64,000 nucleotides of DNA, taken from Hormiphora californensis. Lineage: Eukaryota; Animalia; Ctenophora. The notes beneath the pieces are model-generated. The model was not told the origin of the DNA, did no database searches, and saw only the letters and a program-made list of their open reading frames with translations. Each line of letters begins with the position of its first letter. The stretch's first letter is position 1. The DNA lies in NCBI GenBank assembly GCA_020137815.1, contig CM035351.1, positions 7,998,001-8,062,000 on the forward strand, written 5' to 3'. This document shows positions 862 through 47,366 of the stretch, in pieces. The position numbers and the translations under genes are program-made.

Positions 862-3800
862 GCTTATGTTGGCGAGTTCCTTGGGAGGGAAGTTACTCTT
901 CCTCTTTTTCTTGGGAAGTAGGGCCTTGTAGTTCTCTTTCTTCTTTGACATGTAATAATAGTGGATACATTGGTCTACCTGCAGTGAGAAAAGGATGGAT
1001 TCAAGAGTTAAATCCTGGGAGAAATAAAAAGAGTTACAGTGGAATTTGTTCATAAAAGATCAAAATTGAACACGTGACCGTACCGTTTTGTTCTGGATGT
1101 GAGCGGCAATCTTGTGGAATACTTTGCCGTGTTGCCCGAATCTATCCCTGAAAGTCCTCTTCTCTGCATCAGTCCATATGTTGTGGGGGACCGTCAGGTG
1201 ACCCTTGTGTTCCCCAGCTGGATCAAAGTTCCTTCCTGAGTGAATAAGGGATCATGATATAAAGCTATCACTTTTTCTCTCTTTAACATGCGCACTGGTT
1301 TGTCTCATAACATACGTCATACCCCCGGCAGACTGAACTCTCCGAACCGGGCCGAAGAGCTTCAAGTACTGGTATTGTCTCTTACCATTCTCGTTGTAGA
1401 ATCTCCGTGCCCTATCCACAGGGTTTATCAGCATATCAGGGACACTGGCAGCACACTCGAACTGCTTATCCTCACTGTCCTGATGCTCAGTTAGCTGCTC
1501 CACAATCTCTGCCAGCTCTGCTTCAGACCTCACCGCGTTACCCCAGGTCCTAGCCCTGCAGGTGTGGTGATCAAAAGGTTTACACACCACCGCGGGGCAG
1601 GGTGTTGAGCTGATAGTTTAGTTTAATAATTTGGTTGCCATGGTTACAAAAAAAGGATACTTTACTATTTACAACACCCCTCCCTGTGTGTTACCATGAT
1701 TACCATGGTTACATAACTCTCATATCTTACCTTTCTACGGGGTTAATACTGCAGGATATCGGCACTAAGGTATCCTTACTTTTACCAGTTCTTCAGGTGA
1801 CATAGGAGGATAGTTTCAGTATTGTTCTAACCCTCCTTTACCGATATTTGTAAAAGAGGGGCGCGGTCATGCGGTGAGAGAGGGTCGAGTAAGGCAACAT
1901 ATTACCTAACCTCTAAACACCCCCGGCCCTCTCGATATAACAGCAATTACATAGCACCCACCCATTCCCCCAAACTATCCAACTCTATTACCTGTTGAAT
2001 CTCTCCTCCTGTTCTAATTTCCGTTTGATGGTCGGGAAGACAGTTTCAAAATACTTTCTACAGGCAGCCAGATCCTTCTGTCTCTTAGGATTCTCCTCCA
2101 GGATCCGCAGCTTCTCCTGCCACTGTAGGAACTTGTTGTGGTACTCCTCTGCCAGCTCTCGCTCCTGTAATAGAACTGTTACTAGGGAGTTGTGAACTGT
2201 TGCTAGGGAGATGAGGATCGAATAGTGAATTGCTGTATAACTAATGTGAAGTTGAGTTGAGGGTGAACATGAAGATGAAGTTTTTCGTTTGTTCAGATGA
2301 CTCTTACAAAACAGGTCAATTAAAAAGAGGGAAAATAAAATCTCTAAACAAAATTGACAATATCTATCGTTTACACAACACTTCTTGTTCTTCTGAGTAT
2401 GCTACAATAGTCTTTTGAATTGTCTCTATTCCCTCTGTGGTTGTCATGTGTTGCACACCATGGTTACCATGGTTACCGAGCAGAATCTTTGGAACACTGC
2501 CAGATATCTGATAATTCCCACCACCACTGATCTTCATTACATTGCCGACATCAAGTTTCACAGCTCCCCCTCCTCCCCCTTTCTTCTTCTTCTTTCTCTT
2601 CTGCTTCACCCCTATCACCACCCTATTAGGTGATGTACTGATGGGTCTCACCACACACGTCTTCTTTCCCACCTCAGGGGTGCCCCTGAAGTTGCTAATC
2701 TCAAACTCCTGACCATTCTCTGGTATATTGTGGAGAGCATGATCAGGTCGGCTGATGGTTAACTTCTCACTAGGCTTGATGTCAAGAGTTATCGCTCTAC
2801 GCTGTTGCCTGGCAACCGACCTCTTGGAGGATCCTTTTGTTTTCTGTGACCCAACAGTTGTTGTTTTATGAGGACCTCTACCTGGGCTCTTCCTGAGCAC
2901 TAGACCCTTATCTAACTTGATATCCACATCCACCAGGGAGGGGGTGTGTTCAGGTGGGACACTCTTTAGCAGAGCACTGAAATGAGGAAACCGCACCTTG
3001 GGGCCGCACCTTGGTTGCTGGATAGGACTCTGAATAACACTGGACACCATGATAGGTGGTGTGGGGTCTACAGAATGTTGGTGATCAGATCTGATGGAAA
3101 CTGGTTCAGGAGAGGTCCTATTTAGGGTGGTAGCTGTTTGTCGGACCAACTTGATGCACTCTTTAGTGATCCTAAACACCTTCCCCCGGTACCTGATTTT
3201 ACAATACCCCATCTTCCGTTTGTGGGGTTTAATGTTCCGACCAGGAAGGTTAACTATCTTCTGACCAATGGTAACACAGTATATGTTATCTTTGTACTCA
3301 GGGGCAGAGAAACTACCCGTCGTAGTGAGAGAGAGGTCCCGGGCCCTGATTCCCGACTCTACATAGGGAGATAGTTCTGATATCTTGACGGTTTGTTTCT
3401 TGTTCTTGTGGTGTAATATCACTGCGTCTTCCTGAGATCTAGAGGCAGAGAATGAACCAATTGGGATCTTTACTTGTCGTCCCTGCAACTTAGTAACATA
3501 CTTCTCAGGCACACCGTTGTTACCCAGTGGCAGAGTAATCTCCTTGAACATAGGGTAAACATCATCAGGAGAGACGAGAGTTGTTCTTCCGTTCCGTTTG
3601 AAGGAGTAGCTGGTGACTTGTTGAGCGGAGGGAGTAAGACTCTCCGCAGGTATAACCTTCCATACCCCCTCTACACTCACAGCCACCATGCTCTTCAAGC
3701 TGGAGAACTCACTAACCCTCTCTGGTACCTCCGTGATGGCACTGGACCTGACACTCACCCACTCTCCGTTAATCTCCACTCTAAACCCGGTAGGGACGGG

Positions 3801-6800
3801 GTGGATTAGGGATCCAGGGACCCGGTATACCTTCTTCTGGAACTGTACAGAGTACTCCTTGTTATCAGCTAAATACACGGCGTCATCAGCGGGGGAGCTG
3901 GCACCAGGGACCTTTATCACCATCTCTGTTCTCTTTAAACTCTTATCGATCATCATCATGAACACCTCCCCTGGCCCCTTCTCCACTAGATCAGATTTCC
4001 GGGCAGTATACCAGGTTCCCTCCACTAACACCCTGTAGAAGTCAGGTACAACAGGGGTTGGAGCTGTGCTGGCGGGGCTACCCAACACCCCCGGACTGTG
4101 CAGGGATGAGTTGAGGGATGTAATGTCATCTATCTGTTGGAGGGTGTTTGTGGATGAAGCTGTCCGGGCCCTGAGTCTAGTGTGTCGGGCCAGACTGAAG
4201 GAGTTGCACAGACCAGTATCAGTCTCCTCTAGAGGATCTCTAATGTTATCCATGGCGTTCAGTAGATCACATATCCCGGGTAGGTTGTCATAACTGCCCG
4301 CTCTACACGGTGTCTCACTCCTCTGGGACCGGTCTATCTGCTCCATTCGGGTCAGGGCGTCTAACAGCTAACATATCCAGACCAGGGAGGGTGGAGAGAC
4401 GGGCTATCTTCTCATAGTCCACCCTCTCTTCCGAGGGTGTGGACTGATCATCCCTCTCCATAACCATGGTAACAGGCCATCCTGCTCTCATTCTCTATCT
4501 CCATCTGGACTCTAGGTGTTCAGGTCATGCCTATACTGCCCAACTGAACCAACTGGTTGTCTACCACTATCTCCTGTGGTGTTGTGGGACGTGGTGGGGG
4601 TGGGTCCTTGGGGTGTCATCCAGGTAGGCCTTCTGATGGATGTTCTCAATAGATAGAGCCCTGCTCATGAAGACATTCAAACCGGGGAGAAGGGGCAGGG
4701 GTTTATCTTCTAAACTCTCTGAATGTGCTCTTAGAGTCCACTATCGTTACTCTCCTTCCCCTTCTCGTATCTGATCCTAGCCCCTGTGTAGTCAGTGAAC
4801 ACCTGTCTAGGGTGGATTGCAGCAGGAATGATCATGGGGAGAAACGAGGCCGGGGAGATAAATTTGGGTTTCCTGGGACCTGTATCATATCTCAAGTTAA
4901 CCTCTACCGTCTGTTCAACATGTGTCTCTATCAATTCTTGTTTGGGAGAGAAGCGGACTGAGGGGGTACGGGACCGAGATCGCCTTGGTGGGGAGGGAGC
5001 CTTTTCTTTCGAGCTACCACGAACACCAACTGGGTTTCCATTCAAACTTGGAATAGAGCCAACTGGAGCTTTGGAAAGTCTTCTTGGGTCCCCTATGATA
5101 TGGCTGGAATTACTAGGTGGTAAAGTGGTGCGAACTTTTGGAGATCTTCCCCGGAGAATTGATTGTGGCTGATTACCATGGTTACCAGGAGAGTTACTCC
5201 GGACTCCAGGAGAATTATCCCGGACTCCAGGAGAGTTACCCCGAACTCCAGGAGAATTACCCCGGACTCCAGGAGAATTACCCCGGACTCCAGGAGAGTT
5301 ACCCCGGACTCCAGGAGAGTTACCCCGGACTCCAGGAGAATTACCCCGGACTCCAGGAGAGTTACCCCGAACTCCAGGAGAATTACCCCGGACTCCAGGA
5401 GAATTACCCCGGACTCCAGGAGAATTACCCCGGACTCCAGGAGAGTTACCCCGGACTCCAGGAGAGTTACCCCGGACTCCAGGAGAGTTACCCCGGACTC
5501 CAGGAGAATTACCCCGGACTCCAGGAGAGTTACCCCGAACTCCAGGAGAATTACCCCGGACTCCAGGAGAATCACCCCGGACTCCAGGAGAGTTACCATG
5601 GACTCCGGGAGAATTACCCCGGACTCCAGGAGAGTTGCCATGAATACCAGGATAATTACTCCGGACTCCAGGAGAATTATCCCGGACTTCAGCAGGAGAT
5701 TTCTCGCGAATGGGACTCTCACGACATGACAAAACCTCAAAACCAGGTTGAGGTAGTTCTGATGCTTCCAGAGCTTGAATCATTAGCTCAGTGGTAAAGG
5801 AAGGAATAGGGCGGGAGATGACAGGATCAAAAGCAGGTTTGGGCTGGAATAGGACCGGATCAATAGCGGGTTTGGGTTGGATTGGATCAGATCTAATTCT
5901 CTCTTGTTTAATCTCCAGGACCCTCGGGTTATTAGTCCCTGTATCAGTGGATGATTCATCTGAGTAGTCGTCTTGAGGAGACGAGAAGTGTTCATTATTT
6001 GAGAAGGGGACCTGTTGAAATACAGGGGCAGGGAAGACCTGCTGACTGCCTCGCTGCTGAATCAACACAGGGTTCTCAACAACACCTGTCTGACCTCCAA
6101 CATTGACAAGAAACCTCCCTGGGGTGTCTGTCTTGTGAAGGGAACTACCAGGTAGGGTGATTTGTCGACCTTGAAACATGACACTGTACTGTCCAGCAGC
6201 TACCAGGCCACTTGATCCTGCTCCGACATTACTACTGACCTTACTACCAGAGCGGCCCACTCCACCAGCGATACCTCCAAAAGCGCCTCCTCCACTTCCA
6301 ATGACGCCTCCTCCACCTCCAAAAGCGCCTCCTCCACCAGTGCCTACACCACCACCCCCTCCTACTCCACCACTACGCCCCATCTCTTCCTCAATATCAC
6401 TTACCTCCACCATCCTCCCTCCGACACTAATTCTAAAGGCGCTGTCTGCCCTCCTTATCTCGGTGCCCTGTACCGTGTACACTAGCCCCTCTGCTCTCAC
6501 CCTGTAAGTATTCTCATCCTCCACAGTCAGCCCAGAGGTGGTGCAACTACTGGTGCAATCCTCCTCATCAGTTGATATCAAGAGGGAGAAATCAGAGAGG
6601 GACTCAGGCTCCTGCTCAGTTGGGGGACCTGTTTCCAGGGCAACCTCTGTACAGGATGTGACGGGGAAATGTACACCAGACATGGCGCAGGTGATGGTGC
6701 CATCTCTCTGATATGTCAGGTATTCTTTGGGTACAATAACGGGTTGGTTGTTGATAATCACCCGGCAGAAGGACCCCAGGACAGAGGTTGTGGAGATGAC

Positions 6801-9800
6801 CGAGGCACACCGGGGTTCGTCCATAGCACACAAACTCTCGATCAAATATAATGTCTAACTACGGGAAAAACAAAGGGACGCTGCAGCTGCAGGTGGTTTA
6901 TGGGAAAAGTACAAGCCAACTATCTCTGTGTCTACCACTAGACAGGAAATGGGCGCGAATATTATCACACAGAGAATACACACCCTCATATCTGATATAT
7001 ATATTAACTGGAGGGATCTTTCATAGCGGGAAGATACGATCAGAGGGTAACTAATTGGGGTGCTGCAAAACAGTGGATTTCTGTAAGAAAAGTTCGACTT
7101 TTGTGGAAGACTGGGGTTGTTCATTGGCTGTTTATTGTCTGGCCTGCTGGTCAACTTGAGGAGTACTGTGGTTAGCTTGCAGTCTCCTCCGTCAAGAATA
7201 GATAAACCAGTGGGAGATGGATAGATACAGAGAGAGGCCAGAGGGGGGAGATACAGAGAGATAGAGGCCAGAGGGGGGAGAGATAAACCAGAGATACACG
7301 TGACTATACATCAGCCAACCAGAGAATATTCTAGTGCTGACACTTTGAAGAAGAGGCTGTTCATATCAGGTACAATGGCAACTTTGAAATACAGGGAGGG
7401 AAAGAAACGTGCAGTAGTTTGTGGGCTGGAACTTTTATAGTCGCTTCAGAAGTTTGAATAATAGCGAGTGAGTTGTAACATTTTATTACAGTGATGTTTT
7501 CAAAAAGAGAAACACAGTCATCTCAAAGTGGGAAATTTAAATCAGTTTTGGTGTATAAAATGTACAAGTAGACATCCCTCTGCTAAATAATAACATGATA
7601 AATTAACAATCCTCGATACATTTCTCATCGTTCATCAACTCTTATCACAATCAATTTGTCCGCCCGAGTCCTTTCTGGACCAAATAACCAGTGCCTCCGA
7701 TACTCAATTATCAACTGTATAGACTGCATCACACAGTTTTCAGTACAGTTCCCCTCAGTTCATACTTGATGCAATGCCTGATCTCTCTAGTCTATTGAAC
7801 AGTGACGACTTCTTGACCGTGCTACTAGCATTGTTACTACTCTTGAAGGTTGTCCTGGACGTTCCACCGGATCTCACTCCAGCGGAGGAAGACGATCTGA
7901 AACCAGCACCAAACCCTGATGCTGATGATGCTGCTGTAAAGGCTGATGAGGAGGGAGGGGGAGGGAAGGGGCCGGTGGTGTTGGCACGTGCACGGGGGCT
8001 GCCAGCAGGTCGCGGGCTACTGAACCCACCAACCCTGGGACTACTAAATCCAGTGGTACTTCGGGAAGTATTGGACCTAGAAGTTGTTGCGGCAGTTGTT
8101 CGAGTGGCTGTAGTATTGATTCTAGTGGCTGCTGCTACGCTGTTGAAACCACCACTGGCACTGCTGGGACCCGGTTGAGAACTAAATCCACTACTACTGG
8201 GGCCTGGTTGAGAGTTGAACCCACTATTGCTAGGTCCTGGTTGAGAGGTGTAGTCTCTGTAACTATTATCAGACACACTGACATCCATGTGAGGGCCCAC
8301 CCCTCCCGTCAGATCACTGATCATCTTGTAATATTTAGGGCTCCTGTTCTTCCTGATTATCACCCATACAGGACACGCAGCACCGAACCCTGTCTCCGCT
8401 AACTGCAGGTAATCATCCTCAAATATGATCTGGGAATGTTCAAAGTGAACTCTGATGCAGCTGGTAAACTTGCGGATATCCACATCATTGATGTTGCGAG
8501 TTGAGGAGTTCCGTATTATAAACACTGGCTCCTCCCCAGAGTTCCGTGCCATGGTCTTGATGGAATCCAGACAGTTTCGGGGTAGTTTCTCTACAAACCA
8601 TGTCCTGATCAACCTCCTCCCATTAGCCAGGGTACACTCCAGGTTCACAACCTCCTCATTCTTACCCAGGGGTCTGATATCCGTCTCTAGGACAAGGTGA
8701 ACTGAGTCCCGGTGTTTTACTACTGCATACCCAGCCTGGGTTTTAGAGGGACGCACCGCTTTAGGACCAGTCCGGACCCAGGATCCCTGGATTAGAACTA
8801 GATACCCCTGTTCTCCCTCGCCACTATCTGAATCACTATCACCCTCCCCTAATGTAGCATCAGGTCCGAATGTGACTGTTTTGGTGGGCTGCTGGACAGG
8901 GAGGATGGTGGTGCCAACTGGTACTAAATACCTACAATCCCCCACTTTAACTGTGTACTGTCCAGGATGCTGCTTCCGGACCTTGAAGTGTCGCCCATAC
9001 ACGGTCACAGTTTCAGAGTTAACGGTCAGGGTGTACTGTCTCTCTGTGTGGACCAGGGTGCCGTTAATAGCCACTGGGATGGCAGTGGAGGGTTGTGGTG
9101 CGGGTTGAGGTGGAGGTGAGGGTTCCCTGAGAGGAGGAGTAGGTGGTTTCTCCCACAGTGGTACCTTGGGAGGGGACGGCATCCTATCTGGTAGTTTGTA
9201 ACCCCCATTAGGTAGCACTACAAAGGGCGACTCACCTGGCCGGTCTGGTAGTATCACACTGGGCTCCCTGCTACCTAGCAACCCTGCAAACTCTGGTTTC
9301 AGCCTGCCCCACTGATCGTACAAGGCACTAAGAGGCACCATCTTGCTCCCCTCATCAGACCCCTGACTGCTGCTCACAGACAACTCACCGAGAGTGTGAG
9401 GTAAGGTGTTTGTATCAGGAGAGGCTGACTGTTGCCTCATGTGTTGTTCCGGTGAGATGGGGTGAGGGTGGACGGGGGAGGGGCAGGTAGGGTGGGAACT
9501 CTCCCCAGCAGGAGCACTAGTAGTGGGATACTTACTACCCTCTGGTAGGATCACAGGGACAACATTGACAGCCTTGACGTAGTACTTGCTACTGTTATAC
9601 ACCACTACAAACCTTCCTGGTCTCTGTTTACTGGGTCTCACATTGTTAGCTGGTATTACCCTCCACTTAGCATTGATATAGATTCTGTAGAATCCGGTAC
9701 TGGTTATAGGGGTGATCTCGTCATCACATTCAGGGGTAACTGGTCGGATGAAATAGGATTTGTAGGTCTCATTATCGAGAGTCACCTTAACATATTTCCG

Positions 9801-12800
9801 GGTTGATTTAGTCCTGATTAACCGACCTGATACTATCTTAGTAGTGTTGTTTTCCAGGAGGACCGAGTACAAGGCATCAGGTTCTATCTTGATATTCTTG
9901 AAGATCTTCCTGTCCTCCTCAGAGGAGAGAGAGGAGCTGCTGGAGGTATTCATCTCGGGGGAGGATGTCAGGATCTTAACACTCTTCTCAACCCTCCTCT
10001 CTGAGTGGGTGGTAGTGGTTGTACCGGTTCTGGATGGACTCCGCAAGATTCCAGTGGGTGATTTAGTATGTGGACCAGGTGATACAGGCTGGGTAGGTGG
10101 TAAGGGCTGGGTAGGTGGTGGTGGTGGGACCGGTATGGGGGAGGGTTGTTTCTGGTCCTTGGTGGGACAGTTGGGACACTGGAAGGGCAGGATACTACAG
10201 GGTGCCCCACACTGACACTTGGACCCATCCTTCTCCTCCTCCCCATTGTCTAATATCGCACTGTCCTCAGACTCTCCATTCAGTATCATCCTGCAGTCAA
10301 TGATCTCATGATAAGTCCCTTTGAACCACACCATTCCACTGCTCCTGTTAGGGTGACGCTGTATCTTGCTGCCCTTCACTATCAAACACCCCACATTAGG
10401 GCCCAGATCCACGTAGTATGTCAGATTAGGCTTTATAACAATGTTCCTGATACTAAGGTTCACTGGGGTATACCGCTCAGGTTGATACAGGTATATCTCA
10501 CTGACGATACCTGCCCTGTCCTTATCTAGACTGACAATCAGGGCTTTGTCATTTCCTGGAATCGGCCTGATCTGGTTTCCCCGAACTATCTCCCACTTCT
10601 CGTTAATCTTGACCTGGTACATCCGGTCCTCGTGAACATAAACACCGTAGTACTTGAAGGGGTATGTGGCTGTACTTGGAACTGCTTCCTGTTGTTGGGG
10701 TGACTGTTGCCTTGGTGATGGTTGCCTAGGTGATGTTTGTTTTGGTTGCCTAGGTGATGGCTGTTTCTGTTGAGGTTGTTGTTGTTGTGGTTTGTTCCAT
10801 GTTGAGTGGGTGTTATTGTATGTTGTCTGGGAGGTACTGGTCTGCTGGTTGTAATAGTTGACAGCCGTGTTGTTACCATAGTAACCAGGAGAGGACCTGC
10901 CCCCAGGAGGAGGGTGTCGGGATGGAGATGGGGACCCCCCTCCCTTAGCACCCCGTGATGGTGATCTTCTGGAGGGTGTTACTGATGGAGAGAAGGCCTT
11001 GTGGTATGGGTTGTAGCTGGTGGTCCGTGGTGATATGGGTCTGATGGGCTGATCAGGTGTCACTGCCACTATCTGCTCCACTCTAATGGGAGTGTTTGGG
11101 TTCTGGTAGTAGATCACTGCACTACCGTCAGGGGTTGGAGCTAGCTGGGAGCCCAACACTGTCAACCACTGAGCGTTAATGTAGATCTTATAGTACCCGT
11201 AGGTGTAGATGGGTAGACCACGGTACAGGAATGAGTAGGTGGGCTGGGTGGCTGTAGGGGCTACTGGGGCCGGGGTGGAGTCATAACTATAGATCTCAGT
11301 CACCAGGACGAAGTTGTTAGGTCCCTGGTTGAGATAGAGGCTGTTTGGGTCAGCACCAGGGCTCAATTGGGAACCAAATACGAACCACGTACCGGTTATT
11401 AACGAATATCTTAGTACCTTCTCTCTCTGTCAATGTAGAGACCCCGATAGTAGAAGGGGTAGGAGGTTGTAGAGACGTTATTCACCGGGAACACTTCATA
11501 GATCCGGTAGGGGGTTCCATAGTTTGAGTCATTGAGGATCATATATTGGGGGTCTCCTGACACATGCAGGGTAGATCCCAGGACAGTGACCCACTGGTTG
11601 TTCAAACAGGTTTTGTATTGGAGATGAGGGTAAATCAGCTGATTCTTGAACTGTAATGGGTAGTTACCCTTGTGCTGATCAAGTATCACATTCACCTTGA
11701 CTCGGTCACCTAGCAACGGACTGGAACACTTCTGACAGAATTCATCGTACCTCTGGTAGGTACCATCATGGGAGCATAATGTATGCAGATCCTATCTCAG
11801 AACGGTAGCTAGCCCTCACGGATCCGTCACTGTTGAACACACGAACCCCGGGTATGCAGGTGAACTCTCCGTCACCTAGCAACGGAGCAGAGGGAGGTCG
11901 GGAGGAGGAGAGGGAGCTGTTGTTTGACTGAACACGCACTCTCACAGATCCTTCCGGGGACAGGTGTTGGGACATCAAACAAGGTAACACTCAGAGTTTT
12001 AGAGAGAGAGGGGAGTCAGGGGAGACTTTGAGCTGTCGTCTGTTTATCTCTCTCTCTTTTATGGGTGTGTCAGAGAGAAAACGTTGAGTTCCACCGACTA
12101 TTAGCGATGGAATTAGGGACACAAAAAGAGCTATTGGTGCTCCAAGTATGACAAGGAAAACTGAGGCATCAAAGAAGAAAGCTTCTATCTTATTCTCTCT
12201 CTCTCTCTCTCGCTGGGGGATTTGATCCACTTGTTACAATATGCGGTGGAGACTTTTCCATTGGGATGTAGAGAGATGTAGAGAGATAAAAAGCAGAGAG
12301 AGAGAGAGAAACAGACAAACCAAGATACAAACCTACAAAGCACACACAGATCAAACGTGTCAAAGAATGAAAAAGCCAAAACCAAAGACATGTATAAGAT
12401 ACATGTATGTATTGGCATGGTGTATGAATTAACTGTGTATGTTGAAATGTGGGATGCTATACATGAAGTATGAAGACTGACCTTGCTTTCACTTTCTTGT
12501 TTCTTTTTCCACAGGTAATCAACTAGAGCCTTCTTAAATGATCCCTCTTTCCACCTGCACAGAGTAATGTACTATTAGGGGTAATGTACTATTAGGGGTA
12601 GTGTTAATCAGTGTGTCTAGTGACAGAGTGTTGTATTCGGTGTCAAAATCAAACAACAAACAACTCACCGTTTCACCGTTTCATTATACTGCGGTAGGTC
12701 AGATGGCTGCTTGTACAGGGGCTGAAAATAGGGCACAAAACAAATAGTTAACACAGCTTGTTGATAAACACCCCCGTCCCCACCAGACATCATTCTAAAA

Positions 12801-14002: not shown

Positions 14003-15099
14003 TTAACTTCCACGAACAGGTACGGTCTTCATCTCCTCTAAATATTCTCTTTTAGCAGTGTCCTCAATATGTCCAGTCACACTCTCTAGGACAGTCTTCT
14101 TGTTCCATGCCACTGTTACCTTCCTTTTCTTGGGGTTCCTGTGAACCGTCTCAACGTGTCTCTCAAAGGCCTGCTTATAGAAGAATCCAGCAGAGCAATC
14201 CTCACAGTTAAACCTCTTGACTCCGTGATGTACACTTTGTATGTGTTTTACCAGGTTGGGCTTGTGTTTGAACACTTTAGTACACTCAGAACACTCGTAC
14301 TCAACAATGTTAATGACGTTGTGGGCTCGTCTCAAGTGACAGGAGAGTGTTGATTTAGATCGGAATACCTTCCTGCATGTGGGACAGGGATATCTACATT
14401 CCTCCAACTCAAATATCTCCCCACCCTCCACTAACTCATCCACATCACTGGTGGGAAGACTGGGAGCCTGTTCCTCTACACTAACTACCTCCCTCTTCTT
14501 CTCCACCTGCTCACTCCCATTCTCCGCCCCGTGGACCCTTCTCCTGTGTAACTCCAGGTTGGTAACGGTTGAGAACCTTATTGAGCACTCCTCACACCAC
14601 CCTGAATCACGTCTCTGCTTCTTGTGTGTCTGGGCAATGTGTTTTTGAAGGACACTAAACTTGTCGAACTGCTCCCCACAGTCAGTACACATGTACAGGG
14701 AGAAGTGGACCCTCTTTTGGTGTCTGGTCAGGTGTGATTGGGTGGTGAAACTCTGATCACACATTTCACACCTATATGGGGCTGTCTCACCGTGTACCTC
14801 TAGAAGGTGTTTGTACAGGTGTGTCTTCTTAGTGAACCCAACCACATCACACTGTCCACACGGGTACAACTTCTTACCCTCGTGGGTTCGCTCATGTTTC
14901 CTCAGATTACTCAAGGACTTGAAGGAAGAGTTGCACGTTGCACAAACATGGGGTCTGCACTCGGAGTGGGTGTCTGCGTGCCGTTTTAGGTAGCTCTGTC
15001 GGGCAAAGGTCTTGTCACAACCTGGCTCTGGGCAGATATACGGTCTTTCACCTGGGGATGTACACATCAATGTAGTGAGGAAGTTATAGATAGATAGAT

Positions 15100-15159
<60 letters not shown>

Positions 15160-15269
15160 CGCGGCTGCTAGAGATCGCGCTCGCCTCTCTCTCTGACTCG
15201 ATAGCGCTCGCTTCTCTCGCTCGCTCGCTCTCTCTTTCCGGCTCTCTCTCTCCTCGTCTCTCTCTCTCC

Positions 15270-15330
<61 letters not shown>

Positions 15331-15499
15331 CTCTCTCTCTCTCTCCTCTTATTCAGTTTGCTAGAATGTTTTGGAAAACCTGGGGCAATAATTTCTATTC
15401 TAACTTCTTACCGGTGTGTGTAGTGATGTGATCCTCAAGACGGGCTTGTCGGGAGAAGACCCTTCCACATCCCTCAAAGACACACTCGAAAGTGGACAT
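14003..15499 (-). CDS. GTF3A: Transcription factor IIIA-like C2H2 zinc-finger protein (10 fingers), 2 exons: 15412-15499 and 14003-15051
   Basis: Finger 1 FECVFEGCGRVFSRQARLEDHITTHTG and finger 2 CPEPGCDKTFARQSYLKRH have the CxxxxC spacing of TFIIIA. The C-terminal KQAFERH..PKKRK..KKTVLESVTGHI resembles the TFIIIA tail KQSLTRH..PDKKK..KRSLASHLSGYI. Phase-1 GT-AG intron. Confidence 0.75.
15085..15350. repeat. (GATA)/(GA)n followed by noisy (CT)n in the TFIIIA intron
   Basis: Low-complexity tracts in inverted arrangement with a garbled centre; possibly partly an assembly artefact. Confidence 0.8.
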
Positions 15500-15938
15500 C
15501 ACCACCTCACCTGCCTAACAACCATCCCTAGTGGGAGGTGGAGTGGTTAGCTGATAGGACGAAATGAAACTAGCTATTTTTGAAAGGCTGAGGGAAACAA
15601 GATGGTGTAATAAAATATAACTGTATTTAATAAAGGAAAAACTGATAACTATGATACTCCACAAAATTTAGGAGTGATGGTTCAATCTAAAAAAAAATGT
15701 TTGATGGGTCTAGAGATTTGAAACAGCAAGGTACATGTTTTATCATTCCATGTTCAAGAGAACTAGTACTGTTCGATGGTCAAGGATTAAAAGTGGCAGA
15801 ACTCCACGGTTGGCAGTTGACCCTGAACCGTCACTTCAAAATTCAATGGAGTATAGGAATATAAGTATTAACTACAATGTGCATGCATACACATTAAGCA
15901 CTTAAATAAAAAATACTGCTGTTTTACTGCTCATTTAA

Positions 15939-16432
15939 AGTGAGAGTGGACAGAATCAGTTACCAGAAAGGACACGTTTTTTGTATATCTTAGAGATTAG
16001 TTCTCTGACCATTTTGCCTTTTTGCCGCTCAAAATCATCCATCATTTACTGAGATATTTTTGTTAATTATGGGCAATTCCTGTTGGGTCACTATTTATCA
16101 AGCAGGATAGAAACAATCCTTGTGTTTCACTAACAAATTCTTTGAATTTTTAATATGCTGACTTGCTTTGCTCTGCTTCTGTAGGGCTTCTGTGCATGGA
16201 CTTGTCAACCTCACTGCTAATTATGTTCAGAATGTGTAAGTGAAACACAAGGATTGCTTCTATCCTGTTTGATAAATATTGATCTAACAGGAATTCTCCG
16301 AGAGTAAAAAAATTATCTCAGTGATGGATGGGTCGATTTTGAGCGGGAAAAAGGCAAAATGCTCAGGAACTAATATCTAACACCTGTCACCTACAAAGAA
16401 CTTGTCTAATTCTGATTCTGTCCACTCTCACT
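15939..16432. mobile_element. Non-autonomous TTAA-target DNA transposon (Kolobok-like), 494 bp, with diverged ~200-bp inverted arms
   Basis: TTAA|AGTGAGAGTGGACAGAATCAG ... CTGATTCTGTCCACTCTCACT|TTAA. Internal arms are still alignable (ggatagaaacaatccttgtgtttcact / agtgaaacacaaggattgcttctatcc). Absent from the duplicated segment at ~19900. Confidence 0.85.
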
Positions 16433-16575
16433 TTAATAGCCGACACCAGTCAGTAGTCACTATATAGATAAAATAGGAGGCAAGCATTGAAGCACCTTCT
16501 AACTCTGAACGAAATGAACACTCCTTTAGAGAATTTATGTGATATGATATAAGTGGAGAGGTGAGCAGTGAAGGT

Positions 16576-18811
16576 TTACTCTTTGGCCTTACTCTTAACA
16601 TTTTGACACTTCCCAGAGTAATGTTTAATGTGTGCCTTAAGGTTACCAGATGTAAGAAAGCGTTTTCCACAATCCTCACATTCAAACGGTCGCTCTCCCG
16701 TGTGGGTCCTCATGTGAACTTCGATATATTGAGAGGTGGAAAATGTTTTTCCACATTCCTCACATTTGTACGGCTTCTCTCCCGTGTGTTTTCTCATGTG
16801 AACTTTGAGGTAGGAAGACAGGGCAAACTTTTTTCCACATTCCTTACACTGATGTGGTCGCTCTCCACTGTGAATCTTCATGTGAGAACGGAGGTGGCTA
16901 GTTTGGGCAAACGTTTTTCCACACTCCTTACATTCGTATGGCCTTGACCCCGTATGGATTCTTCTGTGTGTGCTAAGATCATTGCTTCTCGAAAAGCTCT
17001 TTCCACATACCTCACATTTATACGGTCGTTCACCAGTGTGAGTCCTCATATGTATTTTAAGAGGATCTGGTCTTGAAAATTCTTTATCACAGAGTTCGCA
17101 TTTATATGGTCGTTCTCCCGTGTGTGTTCTAATATGAATGTTAAGGGCGCCAGATTGAGAAAATCGTTTTCCACATTCCTCACATTTGTACGGCTGCTCT
17201 CCCGTGTGCGACCTCATGTGAGTTTTGAGATGTCCATATTGGGCAAACTTTTTTTCACACTGCTTACATTCGTGAGGTCTTTCACCCGTATGGACCATCT
17301 TGTGGCTGGTAAGGGCACTAACTGAGCTAAAAGTTTTCCCACATTCCTCACATTTGTACGGTCGCTCTCCCGTGTGGGTCCTCATGTGTATTTTGAGACT
17401 GCCAGTTGTAGAGTATCTTTTTTCGCATAAATCACATTTGTACGGCTGCTCTCCCGTGTGGGTCCGCATGTGTATTTTGAGACTTCCAGATTGGGTAAAG
17501 GTTTTACCACAATCCTCACATTTGTACGGTCGTTCACCAGTGTGAGTTCTCAAGTGTGATTTCAAACCGCCACCCTCGGTAAAACATTTTCCACATTCCT
17601 CACATTTGAACGGGTGCTCTCCCGTGTGGGTTCTCAAGTGTAATTTAAGACCGCTAGATTGGGTAAAAGTTTTACCACATTCCTTACATTTGTACGGTCG
17701 TTCACCAGTGTGAGTTCTCAAGTGTTTTTTCAAATTTCCACCTTCGGTAAAACATTTTCCACATTCCTCACATTTGAACGGCTGCTCTCCCGTGTGGGTT
17801 CTCATGTGTGTTTTAAGATTTCCAGATTTAGTAAAAATTTTCCCACACTCCTTACATTCAAACGACCGTTTCCGGTCTCTCAGGTGGGCTCGCATATGTT
17901 TTACAAAGTTTCCAGATGTACCAAATGTTTTTCCACACTCTTTACACTCCATCGCCAATTTTTCCTCATTTTCAGGAGTTTCTGTGCGACGCCTCTTGTT
18001 ACTTGGCAACACATTCTCTTCCTCACTTGAGTCGCTCAGGAGCTCATCTTCTGTGTCCGACAAACTTCCTTCTGATAACTCACCTGAAAATAGAAAAATT
18101 ACAAAGCTTGGGAAGAAAAAGAAGATCTTAGTACATACCTAGTTCTACATTTTTAGTTTTTTTTCATTAACATCAATATGTACGAAGTTATAAATAATTA
18201 TCAACTTACTAGTGTCACTTTCAGAGTCGTTTTTCAAGTCATTGTCAGACAAACTGTCTTCCTGCACTGAACCACTTTCTGATAACTCTCCTAAAAAGGA
18301 TTAGTTTAGTATCAAGAATAATTGGTTTGAACAAACTTGATAATATCCAAAATAGTCGCAGCAATAACGAGTTAGAAAGAATGATCAGTGAAAATAGTTC
18401 ACCTTGTTCTCCTAAGGTTAGCGAATGATTATCTGGTTGCAAAGAGGCTTCAGCTGGTTCCACAGTTTCAGGATCAGATCTTTCTTCGAAATCAGTTGTT
18501 TCAGGATCCACACTGGGGTCAACAGTGTTCTTCGTACAATCAGTCGTATCTTCAGTTTGGACTCCAACGCTTTTCAGTGATCTAACAGGTAGCTGTGGTA
18601 TAACTTCACGATGTCCACACCTGCTACACCCAAAATAAGTCTCCGGAGAGTCAACTGCTTCAGTCTTCACCCGTGGTAGTTCAACATGGACTTGCTCGGT
18701 TTTTAGGAAAGGTCTTGGTACAAACTTGTCCTCATTTCCAGTAACCTCTTCTGCAGTTTTGTTTTTACTCCTTGTTTTGTAGAATACGTGCCGGTTGCTT
18801 TCTTCCCACCA
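16576..18811 (-). CDS. Tandem C2H2 zinc-finger protein, copy 1 (16 fingers, TGE(R/K/Q)P(Y/F) linkers, acidic N-terminus); exons ~18403-18811, ~18209-18290, 16576-18083; +1 indel at ~18783
   Basis: 16 CxxC-x12-HxxxH units counted in the ORF. Upstream exons splice in phase (GELSESGSVQEDSLSDNDLKNDSESDT|[14 protein letters not shown]). Compared with copy 2, the first exon has an extra A (agaatacg vs agatacg). Confidence 0.88.
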
Positions 18812-19069
18812 TCTTGCTACATAGGGATAATGTATTGGTATATTGGTATGACATAATTGTTATAACAATGCTTAGTTTTTAAAACCCATTCATATTTTCA
18901 AATATCAGTTCTGCATAAATTTTAGTGTTTTGTCAAACTATAATTTTGTTAAATAATGATAACACAATACATACATCATTAACAATTAATCATAAAACAC
19001 ACTGAAAAAATGAATGAAGCAAATATTAATAGTTAAACAACTGACCAAATACACCAAATATTTACAAAG

Positions 19070-19627
19070 TTACCATATCATACTAAACCAGCTTGACTTT
19101 TCATTCAAGCCAAGATTGTCTGAAATACTGAAGAAATAATCAAACAAAACAAAATACGGTGCCCAAAAGAGTCCCGGGCGAAGTCTCCATCTGAATCTCA
19201 CTACTCCTTTAGAGGAGAAGATGTTCAGTGGAGTTTGTCGAGAGAGTACTCCCCCCTGGTAAAGAGAGCAGGGTTGACACTGGGGAAACAATCGTTGGAT
19301 GGTACACCCAGTGTGTAGGGATGTAGGTGGCATGTGATCTGAGATGTACTGGACTGTGTAGGTGCCACAGTGAAGGTACCAATCATCTGAACTGGTTTTA
19401 GGTAGATCAGTCAGGCAAAGATCTTGGCACAGCCTGGCCCTTTCACCTGGGAGAGGGAAACGTGTTAGAAAGATAGAGAGATGAATTGCTACGGTTTGAG
19501 AAACTGGGACAATGATTTCAATTCTAAGGATCTTCCTACCGGTGTGTGTAGTGATGTGATCCTCAAGACGGGCTTGTCGGGAGAAGACCCTTCCACATCC
19601 CTCAAAGACACACTCGAAAGTGGACAT
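19070..19627 (-). pseudogene. Chimeric duplication-junction gene: TFIIIA exon 1 + intron + degenerate start of exon 2, fused to the 3' third of the HNH-like gene
   Basis: 19540-19660 is nearly identical to 15412-15535. 19386-19450 is a deleted, diverged copy of 14973-15056. 19070-19381 is nearly identical to 25539-25850. Confidence 0.85.
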
Positions 19628-20576
19628 CACCACCACACCTGCCTAACAACCATCCCTAGAGTGAGGCAGAGTGATTAGTTGATAGGACGAAACGGTGCTA
19701 GTTAGATCAAACAAGCCGAGAAAAACAGGAGAGTTGAAAAATATATAACTGTATTTAATAAAAGTAAACATTTATATCAATACTCCGCAATAGTAAGAAG
19801 TGGCGGTTCTTATTTCAAAAAGTGGTTTGTTTGACAGGTCTAGAGATTTGAAAAAGCAAGTTACATGTTTTATCATTCCACTTTAATGGGAACTAGGACT
19901 GTTCACTTTTGAATGATAATGGATCGAACGTGGCGATCTGAACCGCCCTTAATGCAGGACCGTTTCTTTTCTTTCAAACCGTCCGATTCTTGTAAAACTA
20001 TAGAGAAACAATATTTATATATTATGGGTCGACCTAAATCCTAATAAATGTTTTTTTTTCACAAATCTCACATTCGTACAACTGCTTTGCCTGGCTAGAC
20101 TGTGATTCGGGCGCCCCCCTTCCTTAACAAATGTAAAGAGAGGGTTAGAACATAACAACTGCTATCCCGTGTGGGTCCTCTGAATGTGAATTTTGAGATG
20201 GCTCGATTGGGTAAACTTTTTTCCACACTCTTTGCATTCGTATGGCTTTTCCCCCGTATGGATTCTTCGGTGTGTTCTAAGATCATAAATTGATATAAAC
20301 AACTTTTCACAATCCTCACATTTATACGGTCGTTCACCAGTGTGAGTTCTCATATGAATTTTAAGACGACCTGGTTTCATATAACCTTTTTCACAGAGCT
20401 GGCATTTATATGGTCGCTCTCCCGTATGTATTTTAGTATGAGTAGTAAGGGCGCTAGATGAAATAAATCGCTTTTCACATTCCTCACATTTGTACGGTCG
20501 CTCTCCCGTGTGGGTCCTCATGTGAGTTTTGAGATGTCCATATTGGGTAAAGTTTTTCCCGCATTCCTTACATTCA

Positions 20577-22433
<1,857 letters not shown>

Positions 22434-23082
22434 TTAAGACTGCTAGATTGGTTAAACTTTTTTCCACACTCGTTACATTCGAATGGCTTTTCCCCCGTAT
22501 GGATTCTTCTGTGTTTACTAAGATCAGAACTTGCCGTAAACATCTTTCCACAATCCTTACATTCAAACGGTCGCTCTCCCGTGTGGATCCTCATGTGTAT
22601 TTTGAGATTGCTAGCTTTAGTAAACTTTTTCCCACATTCCTTACATTCAAACGACCGTTTCCGATCTCTCAGGTGGGCTCGCATATGTTTTACAAAGTTT
22701 CCAGATGTACCAAATGTTTTTCCACACTCTTTACACTCCATCGCCAATTTTTCCTCATTTTCAGGAGTTTCTGTGCGACACCTCTTGTTACTTGGCAACA
22801 CATTCTCTTCCTCACTTGAGTCGCTCAGGGCCTCATCTTCTGTGTCCGACAAACTTCCTTCTGATAACTCACCTGAAAATGGAAAATTACGAAACTTGGG
22901 AAGGAAACAAAATATCTACACGTTTTTTGGGAAGGAAAATGATTGTTTTAGTTTTAACTTGGGAAGGAAAGAAAATATAGTTCTCGCTCAGTTTTAGATT
23001 TATCAACAGTATTGACTAGTTGACAAAGGAGGACCCACGAGATGGGAATTTCTGCATTGTATGTTGTATTATATTAACTATA

Positions 23083-23333
23083 AGCCAAAAACTAATTGGA
23101 ATTAGTTGGCGGGAAAGGTGGCCCACTTACACCTTTTGCTGCTACCGGGTACCACGAACTGTCATTCTCTTCACGTCACGTCGGTATCTCAATCTCGATC
23201 TCTCTCACCCTTTCTCTTTCTCTATTTCACTCACCTCTTATATCCCTGATACATTTTAAAATAAAACCCGGCATCAGGCAAAGGTGTAAGTGGGCCACCT
23301 TTCCCGCCAACTAATTCCAATTAGTTTTTGGCT
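23083..23333. mobile_element. MITE, ~250 bp, ~52-bp TIRs, TA-flanked
   Basis: ta|agccaaaaactaattggaattagttggcgggaaaggtggcccacttacaccttt ... aaaggtgtaagtgggccacctttcccgccaactaattccaattagtttttggct|ta. Confidence 0.88.
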
Positions 23334-23368
23334 TAATTTAGGTCCCTTTTTGGTTTCTAATGTCAGTA

Positions 23369-23540
23369 CAGTCGGACCCCGATTTAGGGGCCCCCTATTT
23401 AGTGGCACCCCGATTTAGGGACATGATTTTTTCCCCCCGATATAGGAAATTAACCTTATTTGACCCCGATTTAGTGGACACCCCGATTTAGTGGACAAGA
23501 GCCTTTCCCCCGAGGGTGTCCCTAAATCGGGGTCCGACTG
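23369..23540. mobile_element. Tc1/mariner(pogo)-type MITE, TA TSD
   Basis: TA|CAGTCGGACCCCGATTTAGGG ... CCCTAAATCGGGGTCCGACTG|TA with internal CCCCGATTTAG repeats. Confidence 0.92.
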
Positions 23541-24656
23541 TATGACATTATTTCATGATGTAAAATTGTCAAAATGATGTGTTATGTGAGAAACGAGACG
23601 AATTTCTGTGAAAATCGTAATTTTGACGTCATTATGACGTCATCTGACGTAATTAGTGACGTCGTAACGACGTAATTGGATCACAATATATTTTGAATGA
23701 ATACCCTGAAGGAGCTTGTAAAGTATCATTGACCACAGTGGTCAGGAAAGGGAGTTTTTGCTCGAAAAACGTTCATTTTACTGAATTTTTCGTCAAATTT
23801 TTGACTTCCGACGCAATTTAAGGGCTCAAAATGATGAGCTACGAAAATTCGCAATATAGTAACTGAAAGTTCAGACAATTTGCCGGTAACGATTTTTCGT
23901 CAAATCAGAAATCGGAACACGTCTTCAGGGTGCTAGAGGCGTTTGAAAAAAATTAGTCGATCTCGCGCAATGACGTCACTCGTGACGTCATTGCGCGCGT
24001 TATAAGTAAGATTGAGAGTTGCCACCCAAATGGGTACATGCACGAGACAATTATCTGTCGAATGCCGCTTGGTTTAAGGTCGTACGATGTCTGGTTCGTC
24101 TCAAACTGGGACCAAACGGAAGGTAATAAAGCGTCTATACATCTATCTATCTATCAACCTAGTTATCCCCACACTGAATTTTCTGTTTTGGGGGTGGTGT
24201 TATAACTTTTGAACAAAATGAGCTAGCCACTTGAAATTTTTACCATCGATAGATGTCTACAAGAAGCTTCTGAGTACAAAATTTCAGCTTCCTAGCTCAT
24301 CCGGTTCCGGAGTTATGGCGTGTCAAAAAGTGCCAAAATGGGCTAAAAGTATGAAATAACTATATATACGCTGTGAGCAAGCGGGCCGTTTTTTGGGGGA
24401 ATTTTTTTCGGGGGGTTGGATGGGGCCACCTTTGCGCTTGCCAGCGCAGTGATTGTGTGTAATATATTTGAACTTGAACTTGAACTTACTTGTGTCACAT
24501 TGAGATTCGTTTGCCGAGTCAATGTCAGATAAACTATCTTCCTGCAGTGAACCACTTTCTGATAACTCTCCTAAAAAGGGTTAGTTTATCAAAAATAATA
24601 GCCTTGAACAAACTTGATAATATCCAAAATACTACTTAGTTGCAGCAAAGTTAATA

Positions 24657-24841
24657 CAGTCGGACCCCAATTTAGTGGCCCCCGATTTAGTGGCACCCCG
24701 ATTTAGTGGCACCCCGATTTAGTGGCAGGATTTTTTCCCCCGATGTAGAAAATTAACATTATTTGACCCTGATTTAGTGGCACCCCGATTTGGTGGCAGG
24801 ATTTTTTCCCCCGAGGATGTCACCAAATCGGGGTCCGACTT
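24657..24841. mobile_element. Second copy of the CAGTCGGACCCC MITE family
   Basis: TA|CAGTCGGACCCC ... GGGGTCCGACTT|TA. The paralogous intron at ~18360-18385 lacks it. Confidence 0.9.
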
Positions 24842-25538
24842 TATATAGACTTTGAAAAATGATCCATGAAAATAGTTTACCTTTTTCTCCAAAGGTTAGC
24901 GAATGGTTATCTGGTTGCAAAGACGCTTCAGCTGGTTCCACAGTTTCAGGATCAGATCTTTCTTCGAAATCAGTTGTTTCAGGATCCACACTGGGGTCAA
25001 CAGTGTTCTTCGTACAATCAGTTGTATCTTCAGTTTGGACTCCAACGCTTTTCAGTGATCTAACAGGCAGCTGTGGTATAACTTCACGATGTCCACACTT
25101 GCTACACCCAAAATAAGTCTCCGGAGAGTCAACTGCTTCAGTTTTCACCCGTGGTAGTTCAACATGGACTTGCTCGAATTTTAGGAAAGGTCTTGGTACA
25201 AACTGTTCCTCATTTCCAGCAACCTCTTTTACAGTTTTGTTTTTACTCCTTGTTTTGTAGATACGTGCCGGTTGCTTTCTTCCCACCATCCTGCTACATA
25301 GGGAAATTATTGGTATATTGGTATGACATAATTGTTATAACAATGCTTAGTTTTTAAAACCCATTCATATTTTCAAATATCAGTTCTGCATAAATTTTAG
25401 TGTTTTGTCAAACTATAATTTTGTTAAATAATGATAACACAATACATACATCATTAACAATTAATCATAAAACACACTGAAAAAATGAATGAAGCAAATA
25501 GTTAAACAACTGACCAAATACACCAAATATTTACATAG

Positions 25539-30362: not shown

Positions 30363-31355
30363 TTATTGTTTGTTACTATTGTTCCTATTCACCCTTTCCA
30401 GACACAATGTGATTCTATTCCTGGCCGATTTGATCTTTTCGTCTAACCACCGAGCGTAGTCTGGCATCCGGAAACAGTATACCACCGGGTTGAGTGTTGC
30501 GTTTATTGCTATACACAACACCTTGGCCAGTACCATACTGTGCCAGTGCATAAAAACTGGGGCGAACAGAGTCCCGGGAAACATCTCTCCCTTGACATTC
30601 ATGGCCATCAGGAAAATCAGCAGGATTGAGATGGGTAGATTACAGATAAGGAATAGTCCAGATACGATCACGATGGTGATAGATACAGATACATTCTTTG
30701 CACTCGCACCCCTAATCTGCACCTGGGAGGCTCTGTACAAGGCAGTTATTGAAACCACACAACTGATCAGGACAACCACACTTGGGAGAAGAATCACCAA
30801 GGACGCGAAGAGGTTCCCAGTTGTAATCCAAATCTTCACAGACTCGGTCATGTTTTCAATGTTTTCCACGAAAATAATTTTGCTACAATAACAATCATCA
30901 ACAACGTAAACGTACTTTGCATTGAATTGATAGTTCAGCCCTGTCATAATACACAGGAGTGTACAGAAAAGGAAGAGAGTACGGAAAACCCACTCGGACT
31001 TGATGTGGAAGAGGGGTTTTAGGATGGCAATTGTCCTAGTAACACTTAGTAACATGACCAGGAACACCCCACTGTTAAGGAGGAACTCAAACAGGACGGT
31101 CCACGAGGTACATATGATTTGGCTGGAGAAGGCCAGTGGCTCCCTATCCATGGAGAGGAGAGAAACCATTACAGGGATGTGTTGAAGACATGTTAGTATG
31201 TCTATAGCTGTCATAGCGGTGTACAGTTTCTGGGGTAGAGATTTGGGTGGTCCTAGAAGGAAGTAGCAGAAGGCGGTTATGTTAGCGGGGGTGCCAACAA
31301 CCAGACATATCAAGAGAGATAACCCTGTGAAATAAAATACTGTCATTATAATCAT
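30363..31355 (-). CDS. Intronless class A (rhodopsin-like) 7TM GPCR, 330 aa
   Basis: Seven hydrophobic segments. TM1 GTPAN, TM2 D, TM3 CxxW...LSVTRTIAILKP (DRY replaced by TRT), TM6 FLICNLP, TM7 NATLNPVVY. Confidence 0.92.
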   Translation of the reverse strand: MIIMTVFYFTGLSLLICLVVGTPANITAFCYFLLGPPKSLPQKLYTAMTAIDILTCLQHIPVMVSLLSMDREPLAFSSQIICTSWTVLFEFLLNSGVFLVMLLSVTRTIAILKPLFHIKSEWVFRTLFLFCTLLCIMTGLNYQFNAKYVYVVDDCYCSKIIFVENIENMTESVKIWITTGNLFASLVILLPSVVVLISCVVSITALYRASQVQIRGASAKNVSVSITIVIVSGLFLICNLPISILLIFLMAMNVKGEMFPGTLFAPVFMHWHSMVLAKVLCIAINATLNPVVYCFRMPDYARWLDEKIKSARNRITLCLERVNRNNSNKQ

Positions 31356-40976: not shown

Positions 40977-41643
40977 AGTGGCCAACTGGTCCCTCTGTAG
41001 AAGTGTAGTGAGTACCTAATAGATGAGATGGTTGTTCAGATATTCAGATCTTTTTATTGTTTGTAGAGAGAAAATAGACATAGTTGATTTGAACGATTGA
41101 ACTAGGACACCGAGACTCAGACACCTCGCCGAAAAGCCTAAATTCCTTTTAACTGTAAATAGATTTGTAGAAATGAACAAAGACTAATTATTGACCAATT
41201 ATTCAGACAATATGATTCTTTTTACTATCAATTAGATGGAATATTCTATTACTGGTGGAGTGAATTATATGACCCATTGTTTTCTCGCCATATAAATTTG
41301 TACGTTTTAGCTTCGATTTTGTTATCCAACCAAAGAAGCGTGTTCAAATTACTTGTAGATCAGCTCAATAGACCTCTTCTTGCTCTTGACAGTTTGATAC
41401 TGAGAGTGAGACGATGGTAGTAATTTCGGATTTCTTCTCCACCCCACACTTGCCTTGGTCGACACTAGGACTCACTGAACAAAACAATCCAATACAACAG
41501 ATGTGGGACTTGTTGTTGTGGGACGGGGCGAATCAGGGGTAATATCCTGGGATCAGAACAATAGAAATCTCCAGGGTGCTGTGAATAGATGAAACGGAGG
41601 AGGTAAATATCCGTGTCCGCACGTGCCCCCCAATATTGGCACC

Positions 41644-41649
<6 letters not shown>

Positions 41650-41680
<31 letters not shown>

Positions 41681-46626: not shown

Positions 46627-47366
46627 CTACGCCACAAGAAAGATAACAGCACCAACAAGAAGGGACAGAGCTGCAGTAATATGGTGTCCACCATTGTTTC
46701 CACCGCTGTTATCCTCACTAGTTAGTGCTGCCACATTCTCAGCATATTCTCCCACATAGTTTCCTGCCGGGTAATACTGACATACAACGTAGTACGAGTT
46801 GAATCCATTCTTAACAAATGTCGTGTAACCACAGTTAACTTGTTCACTGGCTTGCCAAACCACCTGTAAAAAGTTGGATGTTATCATGTTCTAAGAAAAT
46901 TCCTGAGCTGGGTGACAAGTCCCAGCTTACACAAAAACGGTGTTGTTACTAGTATGGTGATTATTACCTGTGTGAAATGTCCAGTTACTGTTCCATCCTT
47001 GCCACTACTGCTACTAAAGTCCCAGTCCGATATTTCATCGTACCAGGCCTGGGTAGAGGACTCATAAGCCGCTGTAATATTAGCAACAGTCCCAGTTGTA
47101 CCAGCATAAGCCAAGTTCTCTCCATAGTCCCCAGTGCTGTGTTCCATGGTTAGTGCAGCTGCCATTGATTCAGCCCAACTTTGTGAGGTGTAAGTGATAT
47201 CATCCCCACTCTCCCCATAACATAGATCTGCCGTGTTGTCGTGAAGGGCTCTCAGCGCATTGTGCTTGTCTAGTATAATCTGTTCTGCGGCTGATAGGGA
47301 GCCGCTCTTGCAGACTCCTTCTACAGATCCTAGGAGGAGTAGGGCAACACAAACTGCAGAAAACAT
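46627..47366 (-). CDS. Secreted, probably GPI-anchored CAP/SCP protein; exons 46968-47366 and 46627-46864
   Basis: Signal peptide MFSAVCVALLLLGSVEG; HNALRALH, YGENLA, AWYDEISDWDF, GHFTQ|VVW, YVVCQYYPAGN; small-residue spacer plus hydrophobic tail ending at the stop. Confidence 0.92.

Follow-up and report, generated by a model that had tools for sequence, protein, structure and literature searches.

Two intronless genes, here designated A and B, lie within a single intron of an NCoR1/2-like gene of the ctenophore Hormiphora californensis, in a stretch of 64,000 nucleotides of contig CM035351.1 (assembly GCA_020137815.1, positions 7,998,001 to 8,062,000; hereafter the window). They encode proteins of 1400–1500 amino acids (aa) with nine and eight copies, respectively, of a module predicted to form an SH3/Tudor-fold barrel of two similar halves. 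The module represents a real, conserved and uncatalogued domain family of known fold class, with an unusual two-fold symmetry at the level of sequence. As to function, the reading we prefer, with a probability of roughly 0.4 as a whole, is that the two proteins are intracellular multivalent scaffolds that grip a polyanion, most likely RNA. Ctenophores, which hold a central position in early animal evolution and have many unexplained genes, thereby gain a conserved domain family that spans several genes and is missing from the catalogues.

A first-pass annotation of the window had described about 17 copies of an unrecognised module in this region. In a leave-one-position-out test covering the nine gene-A positions in four species, 35 of the 36 held-out modules were reached by 0/250 shuffles, the exception being the A5 module of the window, which was reached by two. 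A hidden Markov model (HMM) built from gene-A modules alone found both open reading frames (ORFs) of gene B among 1574 six-frame pieces (E = 2e-11 and 1.9e-5), the next piece standing at E = 0.5. The refined family HMM gave at least 15 bits for 9/9 gene-A and 6/8 gene-B modules, scores that are partly circular in that this HMM includes the window's own modules; on 348,200 shuffled residues no domain rose above 7.6 bits. A half-unit profile places the first halves of the two weak copies, B2 and B4, above its shuffle threshold (19.9 and 25.3 versus 9.8). The 17 copies, 15 strong and two weak, are thus found at the claimed places on the minus strand. Module identity in four distant orthologues is 44–59%, against 20–38% for the remaining protein, and in a module tree the copies cluster by position across species, the deep order not being resolved. 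Several gene-A modules carry an extra N-terminal strand-like segment of ~14 residues. Separation of the modules by Ser-Pro-rich linkers held in part: Ser/Thr-Pro is enriched, modestly in gene A (38 versus 29 expected) and in gene B (50 versus 22) largely through one heptad array, but many modules stand nearly back to back (A4–A5, A6–A7 and B5–B8). The gene-A orthologues P0006 and P0007 have Ser-Pro-Gly-Tyr repeats of their own, reminiscent of the Pol II tail.

The module family was indeed absent from the catalogues searched. In Pfam, neither the ORFs nor the 16 window modules matched any family at E below 0.004, and 25 relatives matched none at E ≤ 0.01; NCBIfam, PHROGs and viral structures gave no significant match, PDB sequence profile searches gave chance rows only (uL6, E 0.05), and a single ESM Atlas query gave no usable match. 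In the literature covered, with most subscription papers and all supplements outside its scope, no description of the family was found. A 16-module profile searched against 1.84 billion proteins gave 35 matches at E ≤ 0.001, of which 27 carry modules (90 at ≥ 15 bits). The other eight, bacterial-type Ig-like, MucBP, MBG or SWM repeat proteins with no module at 15 bits, were rejected. When the profile search was restricted to proteins of 1268–3620 aa, only gene-A proteins were recovered. The relatives fall into seven blastp clusters with one to nine modules each (12 in a duplicated Pleurobrachia bachei model). Sources were looked up for 18 of the 27 and named for four, all ctenophores: three from P. 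bachei and one Mnemiopsis leidyi 'hypothetical protein' (KAL5251076.1). This agrees with the lineage specificity suggested earlier; we only infer that the family is restricted to ctenophores, because just four of the 18 are named and two of the seven clusters have neither a named nor a window member.

The family and its fold, as predicted, are highly probable. The module spans ~46 residues, and A7 modelled alone (Table 1, with its predicted local distance difference test score, pLDDT) shows the antiparallel strands of an SH3-like small barrel: β1, β2N/β2C, β3, β4, a 3-10 turn and β5. The predicted topology is β-β-3-10-β, twice, with a 3-10 turn in each half. Structural searches place the model among SH3-fold barrels, as the first-pass annotation had proposed for an SH3-, KOW- or Tudor-like barrel, and Tudor domains occupy many of the top rows. 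In the model strands 7–12 and 15–20 are connected by two residues; because the β1–β2 link is such a tight turn there is no RT loop, the elongated β1–β2 loop that defines canonical SH3 domains (10.1101/140376; here and below, papers are cited from the available parts of their texts).

A multivalent intracellular scaffold is the probable role, since many small barrels are carried on a flexible chain, no polar residue is invariant in the modules, and there is no membrane segment and apparently no secretion signal. The earlier claim that transmembrane segments are absent was borne out: neither protein has a long hydrophobic segment (maximum 19-residue hydropathy 1.23 in A and 1.58 in B). Presumably, then, the proteins are neither catalytic nor secreted. 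Flexible Ser/Pro-rich linkers would let many weak barrel sites act jointly, and proline-directed phosphorylation might tune the scaffold. Net charge is positive in 53 of 73 modules (mean +3.4); early modules of A and B are near neutral and later ones strongly positive (+3 to +12, with B6 at 0). As a guess, the basic barrels could grip a polyanionic ligand, with RNA as first candidate and tubulin tails as second; RNA itself is proposed tentatively.

Alternatively, the same domain and fold might serve in structural proteins that cross-link a cytoskeletal or ciliary structure peculiar to ctenophores, such as comb plates or sperm, by attaching to acidic tubulin tails or to other proteins. Some SH3-like barrels, such as CAP-Gly, can attach to microtubules, and the barrels described here are basic. 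All named family members are from ctenophores, and the paralogues P0030 and P0033 combine two barrels with a long Glu/Gln/Arg-rich N-terminus that is probably a coiled coil. Ctenophore-specific comb-plate proteins exist (10.1101/2022.03.27.486007); however, CTENO189, considered as a family member, was rejected, being a metalloprotease/death-domain protein in the available text of that paper, and the sources covered, which did not include that paper's candidate table, yielded no link to expression or proteome data. This explanation is possible, if somewhat unlikely.

A further possibility is that the barrels are peptide-binding adaptors resembling multi-Tudor germ-granule scaffolds: they would read methylated Arg/Lys as diverged Tudor domains, or bind proline-rich motifs in the manner of SH3 domains. 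Multi-Tudor proteins carry many barrels on a disordered chain, a layout that counts in favour of this view, as do the Tudor domains among the top structural rows, the proline-rich linkers and a Trp at column 11 in 40% of modules. However, no module or relative matches a Tudor, SH3 or KOW family of Pfam, and Tudor families in particular were missing at E ≤ 10 for the ORFs and 16 modules, at E ≤ 0.01 for the 25 relatives and in the PDB profile searches. None of the 73 modules is aromatic at columns 7, 11 and 33 together, and columns 34–36, in the β3–β4 turn, are aromatic in 1, 0 and 1 of 73; the mapping of these positions of a methyl-Lys/Arg cage used SMN numbering together with the range aligned in the structural search, not a residue-level alignment. 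The lack of an RT loop also speaks against SH3-type binding, and ordinary Tudor genes are already present in ctenophores (PMC12147562). We regard adaptors as unlikely.

The proposal that each module consists of two half-repeats was supported by profile comparison. The pattern Y-x-V-x-I-N-G ... V ... I recurs 26 columns later (73 modules below 60% identity, mean 21%), and self-comparison of the profile gives +17.7 at offset 26, with 31 of 32 other offsets negative and the remaining one at +2.9. This score was reached by 0/20,000 column shuffles, also when hydrophobic and polar columns were shuffled separately. On the first-half profile 40 of 62 second halves reach p < 0.01, and HHalign of half against half gives 93.6% (E = 2e-7). 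Across families the half comparison gave 93.5% in one direction and 26.7% (E 7e-4) in the other, with 1.8% for a reversed control. That the half-unit resembles the second, C-terminal half of SH3 domains found no support in PDB profile searches. Complex prediction with two copies of a 31-residue half-unit, in which the alignment was not used, scored 0.02.

It is conceivable, if rather doubtful, that ctenophores rebuilt an SH3-type barrel from scratch, a hairpin/3-10/strand unit of 23–26 residues being duplicated, fused and spread to at least seven gene families. If so, this would be the first natural SH3-fold family with proto-domains still recognisably homologous, and a living example of a route proposed for one of the oldest folds. 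The barrel retains a sequence trace of internal duplication, otherwise described for the SH3 fold only from geometry in the literature covered, where no half repeat at the level of sequence was listed for any SH3-fold family; this contrast rests on that literature (10.1101/140376, PMC11258233, PMC9907106). Natural sequences can therefore be used to test whether small barrels arose from a duplicated half; such an origin predicts that a peptide of one half-unit, or a design with perfect symmetry, should fold. The likeness might instead be convergence imposed by barrel symmetry on a very diverged ordinary SH3-fold family that never duplicated internally. The aligned unit has only ~19 columns, and one cross-family comparison is weak; moreover, all SH3-like barrels have approximate C2 geometry, perhaps a by-product of closure (10.1101/140376). 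The single strong peak at offset 26, its survival when residue classes are shuffled apart, the p-values of the second halves, the HHalign result with its reversed control and the predicted 3-10 turn in each half nevertheless make convergence improbable, and favour the halves as traces of duplication.

The window itself displays three long minus-strand ORFs (7755–11429, 4731–6854 and 2364–4367), which belong to two live genes rather than three. For the largest ORF, a P. bachei gene model is the best homologue (93% identity). Gene A had been given as an open frame over 7755–11975; in the window that frame is broken by three one-base insertions, across which the sequence from the ATG at 11975 aligns to the P. 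bachei model (P0005). Contigs of runs X1 and X5 are recorded as lacking the insertions at 11769 and 11382; at that place run X3 shows 11769 and not 11382, and removal of 11413 or 11414 brings back the P. bachei residues and yields the 1405-aa product. Orthologues P0006–P0012 and P0014 are single ORFs. The two smaller ORFs, previously taken as separate genes (4731–6854 and 2364–4346), belong together: contigs of two samples from two studies differ from the window by eight one-base indels between them, which when applied open one 1484-aa frame, matched by 0/5000 random placements of eight such indels. In addition, orthologues P0015, P0017 and P0019 (single ORFs of 1233–1284 aa) match both halves. 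Among the allelic differences listed (40, with 410 more), 32 of 36 are synonymous, the 36 being the 40 minus two host-exon rows and two duplicates of a second set; that set, from the two-sample contigs, has 24/28 synonymous, including 15/19 within the former gap. The restored frame, the orthologues spanning both halves and the synonymous bias therefore establish two genes, real genes that one-base errors of the assembly had split. Searching for homologues of the third ORF by itself, within 366–1168 aa, found nothing, which the greater length of gene B explains. The region 41400–42800 is homopolymer-rich and resembles poor assembly consensus, in agreement with one-base errors in A and B. The 11 interruptions in the window might suggest decaying pseudogenes, or the repeat an artefact of pattern matching, but the contigs free of the gene-B indels, intact orthologues, synonymous bias and shuffle tests refute this.

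The host gene was recognised by its SANT exon, the top matches of which are NCoR2 (E = 1.2e-6) and NCoR1 (E = 1.8e-6). Contigs of run X1 connect 12481 to 2164 via GT-AG ends, omitting 10,317 bases that include all three ORFs, and bridge two smaller host introns as well. Both genes thus lie wholly within one spliced host intron on the host strand, as parallel nested intronic genes. A loose contig end at 13678 (−) agrees with the 3′ portion of the spliced leader given for ctenophores in PMC8527503, and the NCoR-like transcript appears to be trans-spliced to this leader there. Since it contains spliced joints and the spliced-leader end, we infer that run X1, for which a tool guessed the label DNA, is RNA. 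Run X7 (2015) has no coverage of the A/B locus. A loose end with eight T residues at 7523 is compatible with a poly(A) site of gene A, as a hint only. Scans of JGI metagenomes found no locus related to A/B; three A and three B orthologues share longest contigs of equal size (114243, 10376 and 24749), which suggests that the pairing is kept elsewhere.

Table 1. Features of the A/B locus (window coordinates)
Feature	Position	Strand	Remarks
Host intron	2165..12481	−	10,317 nt, GT-AG; NCoR1/2-like host; contains A and B on same strand; spliced joint in run X1
Gene A	7755..11975	−	Intronless; 1405 aa after discounting 1-nt insertions 11769, 11413/4, 11382; 9 barrels and C-terminal α/β domain
Module A1 core	11489..11623	−	Leave-one-out, HMM
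Module A2 core	11289..11422	−	Holds two window insertions; 22 bits
Module A3 core	11067..11198	−	Leave-one-out, HMM
Module A4 core	10491..10625	−	Leave-one-out, HMM
Module A5 core	10299..10424	−	Most divergent of A
Module A6 core	9744..9875	−	Leave-one-out, HMM
Module A7 core	9558..9695	−	pLDDT 91.6 folded alone
Module A8 core	8904..9041	−	HMM
Module A9 core	8673..8810	−	HMM
Gene A C-terminal α/β domain	8283..8651	−	~120 aa; 49–64% identity in orthologues; pLDDT ~77–89
Gene B	2364..6824	−	Intronless; 1484 aa after discounting eight 1-nt indels between 4362 and 4758; 8 barrels
Module B1 core	6639..6773	−	HMM
Module B2 core	6387..6512	−	Weak, 6.8 bits
Module B3 core	6066..6194	−	HMM
21-nt tandem array, 24 copies	5185..5692	−	Encodes Ser-Pro heptad in gene B; absent from gene-B orthologues
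Module B4	3909..4043	−	Weak, 5.9 bits; clear first half
Module B5 core	3732..3860	−	HMM
Module B6 core	3555..3692	−	HMM
Module B7 core	3372..3506	−	HMM
Module B8 core	3150..3287	−	Net charge +12

The conserved C-terminal domain of gene A had been overlooked in the earlier feature list. It has no Pfam or PDB sequence match and only weak structural neighbours (THUMP-like and dehydrogenase-like rows), and by alignment it occurs also in paralogue P0043. Upstream of module A8 (~9240–9345, −) lies a second conserved mini-motif of ~33 aa, common to P0024 and P0025; faint resemblances to it occur close to the N-terminus of gene-A orthologues (7.5 bits) and within P0043 (4.9 bits). Orthologues also keep a short run of Cys residues (C-x-C ... 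C ... C-x-x-C) that follows module A5 (~10150–10220, −) and may be a zinc site. Mid gene B (~4270–4690, −) has three spaced Leu-Pro-Gly-led motifs, probably helical, repeated in orthologues too. Elsewhere, the window holds a cluster of C2H2 zinc-finger genes with duplicated segments (14003–25334), an intronless rhodopsin-family G-protein-coupled receptor (30363–31355, −) and a CAP-domain exon (46884–47366, −).

Compared with known systems, the nesting of A and B is ordinary for ctenophores. Parallel nested genes are common there, Hormiphora having 2357 nested genes, many of them parallel, and like A and B they are entire genes in a single host intron on the host strand, with no difference apparent from the available text (PMC8527503). 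The modules stand further from known barrels. From Tudor/Royal-family barrels (TDRD3, PHF1/PHF19, SGF29, SMN, 53BP1, PWWP) they differ in several ways: identity is just 6–16% with no HMM match, an aromatic cage is lacking, the turns are tight, a second 3-10 turn interrupts mid β2, and the halves are alike in sequence. In contrast to the KOW domains of Spt5/NusG and other nucleic-acid-binding SH3-like barrels (integrase C-terminal domain, uL24, eL21), they have no KOW or NGN match in Pfam, the KOW motif being a β1–β2 stretch of 27 residues whose Gly at position 11 is invariant; kinship with Spt5 through the Ser-Pro heptads was rejected, the gene-B array not being conserved in orthologues. Small barrels have been described as two C2-related proto-domains, whose symmetry is left open as a possible geometric by-product of barrel closure (10.1101/140376), and the module halves coincide with proto-domain 1 (β1, β2N, β2C) and proto-domain 2 (β3, β4, β5); the symmetry is geometric there, whereas in the module it is visible in sequence. 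The pseudo-symmetric six-stranded double-psi β-barrels and RIFT barrels, single chains thought to stem from tandem duplication of a short unit, resemble the module in this respect (PMC11258233). The module, however, groups with SH3-fold barrels, which the same source derives from OB by circular permutation rather than from a duplicated half.

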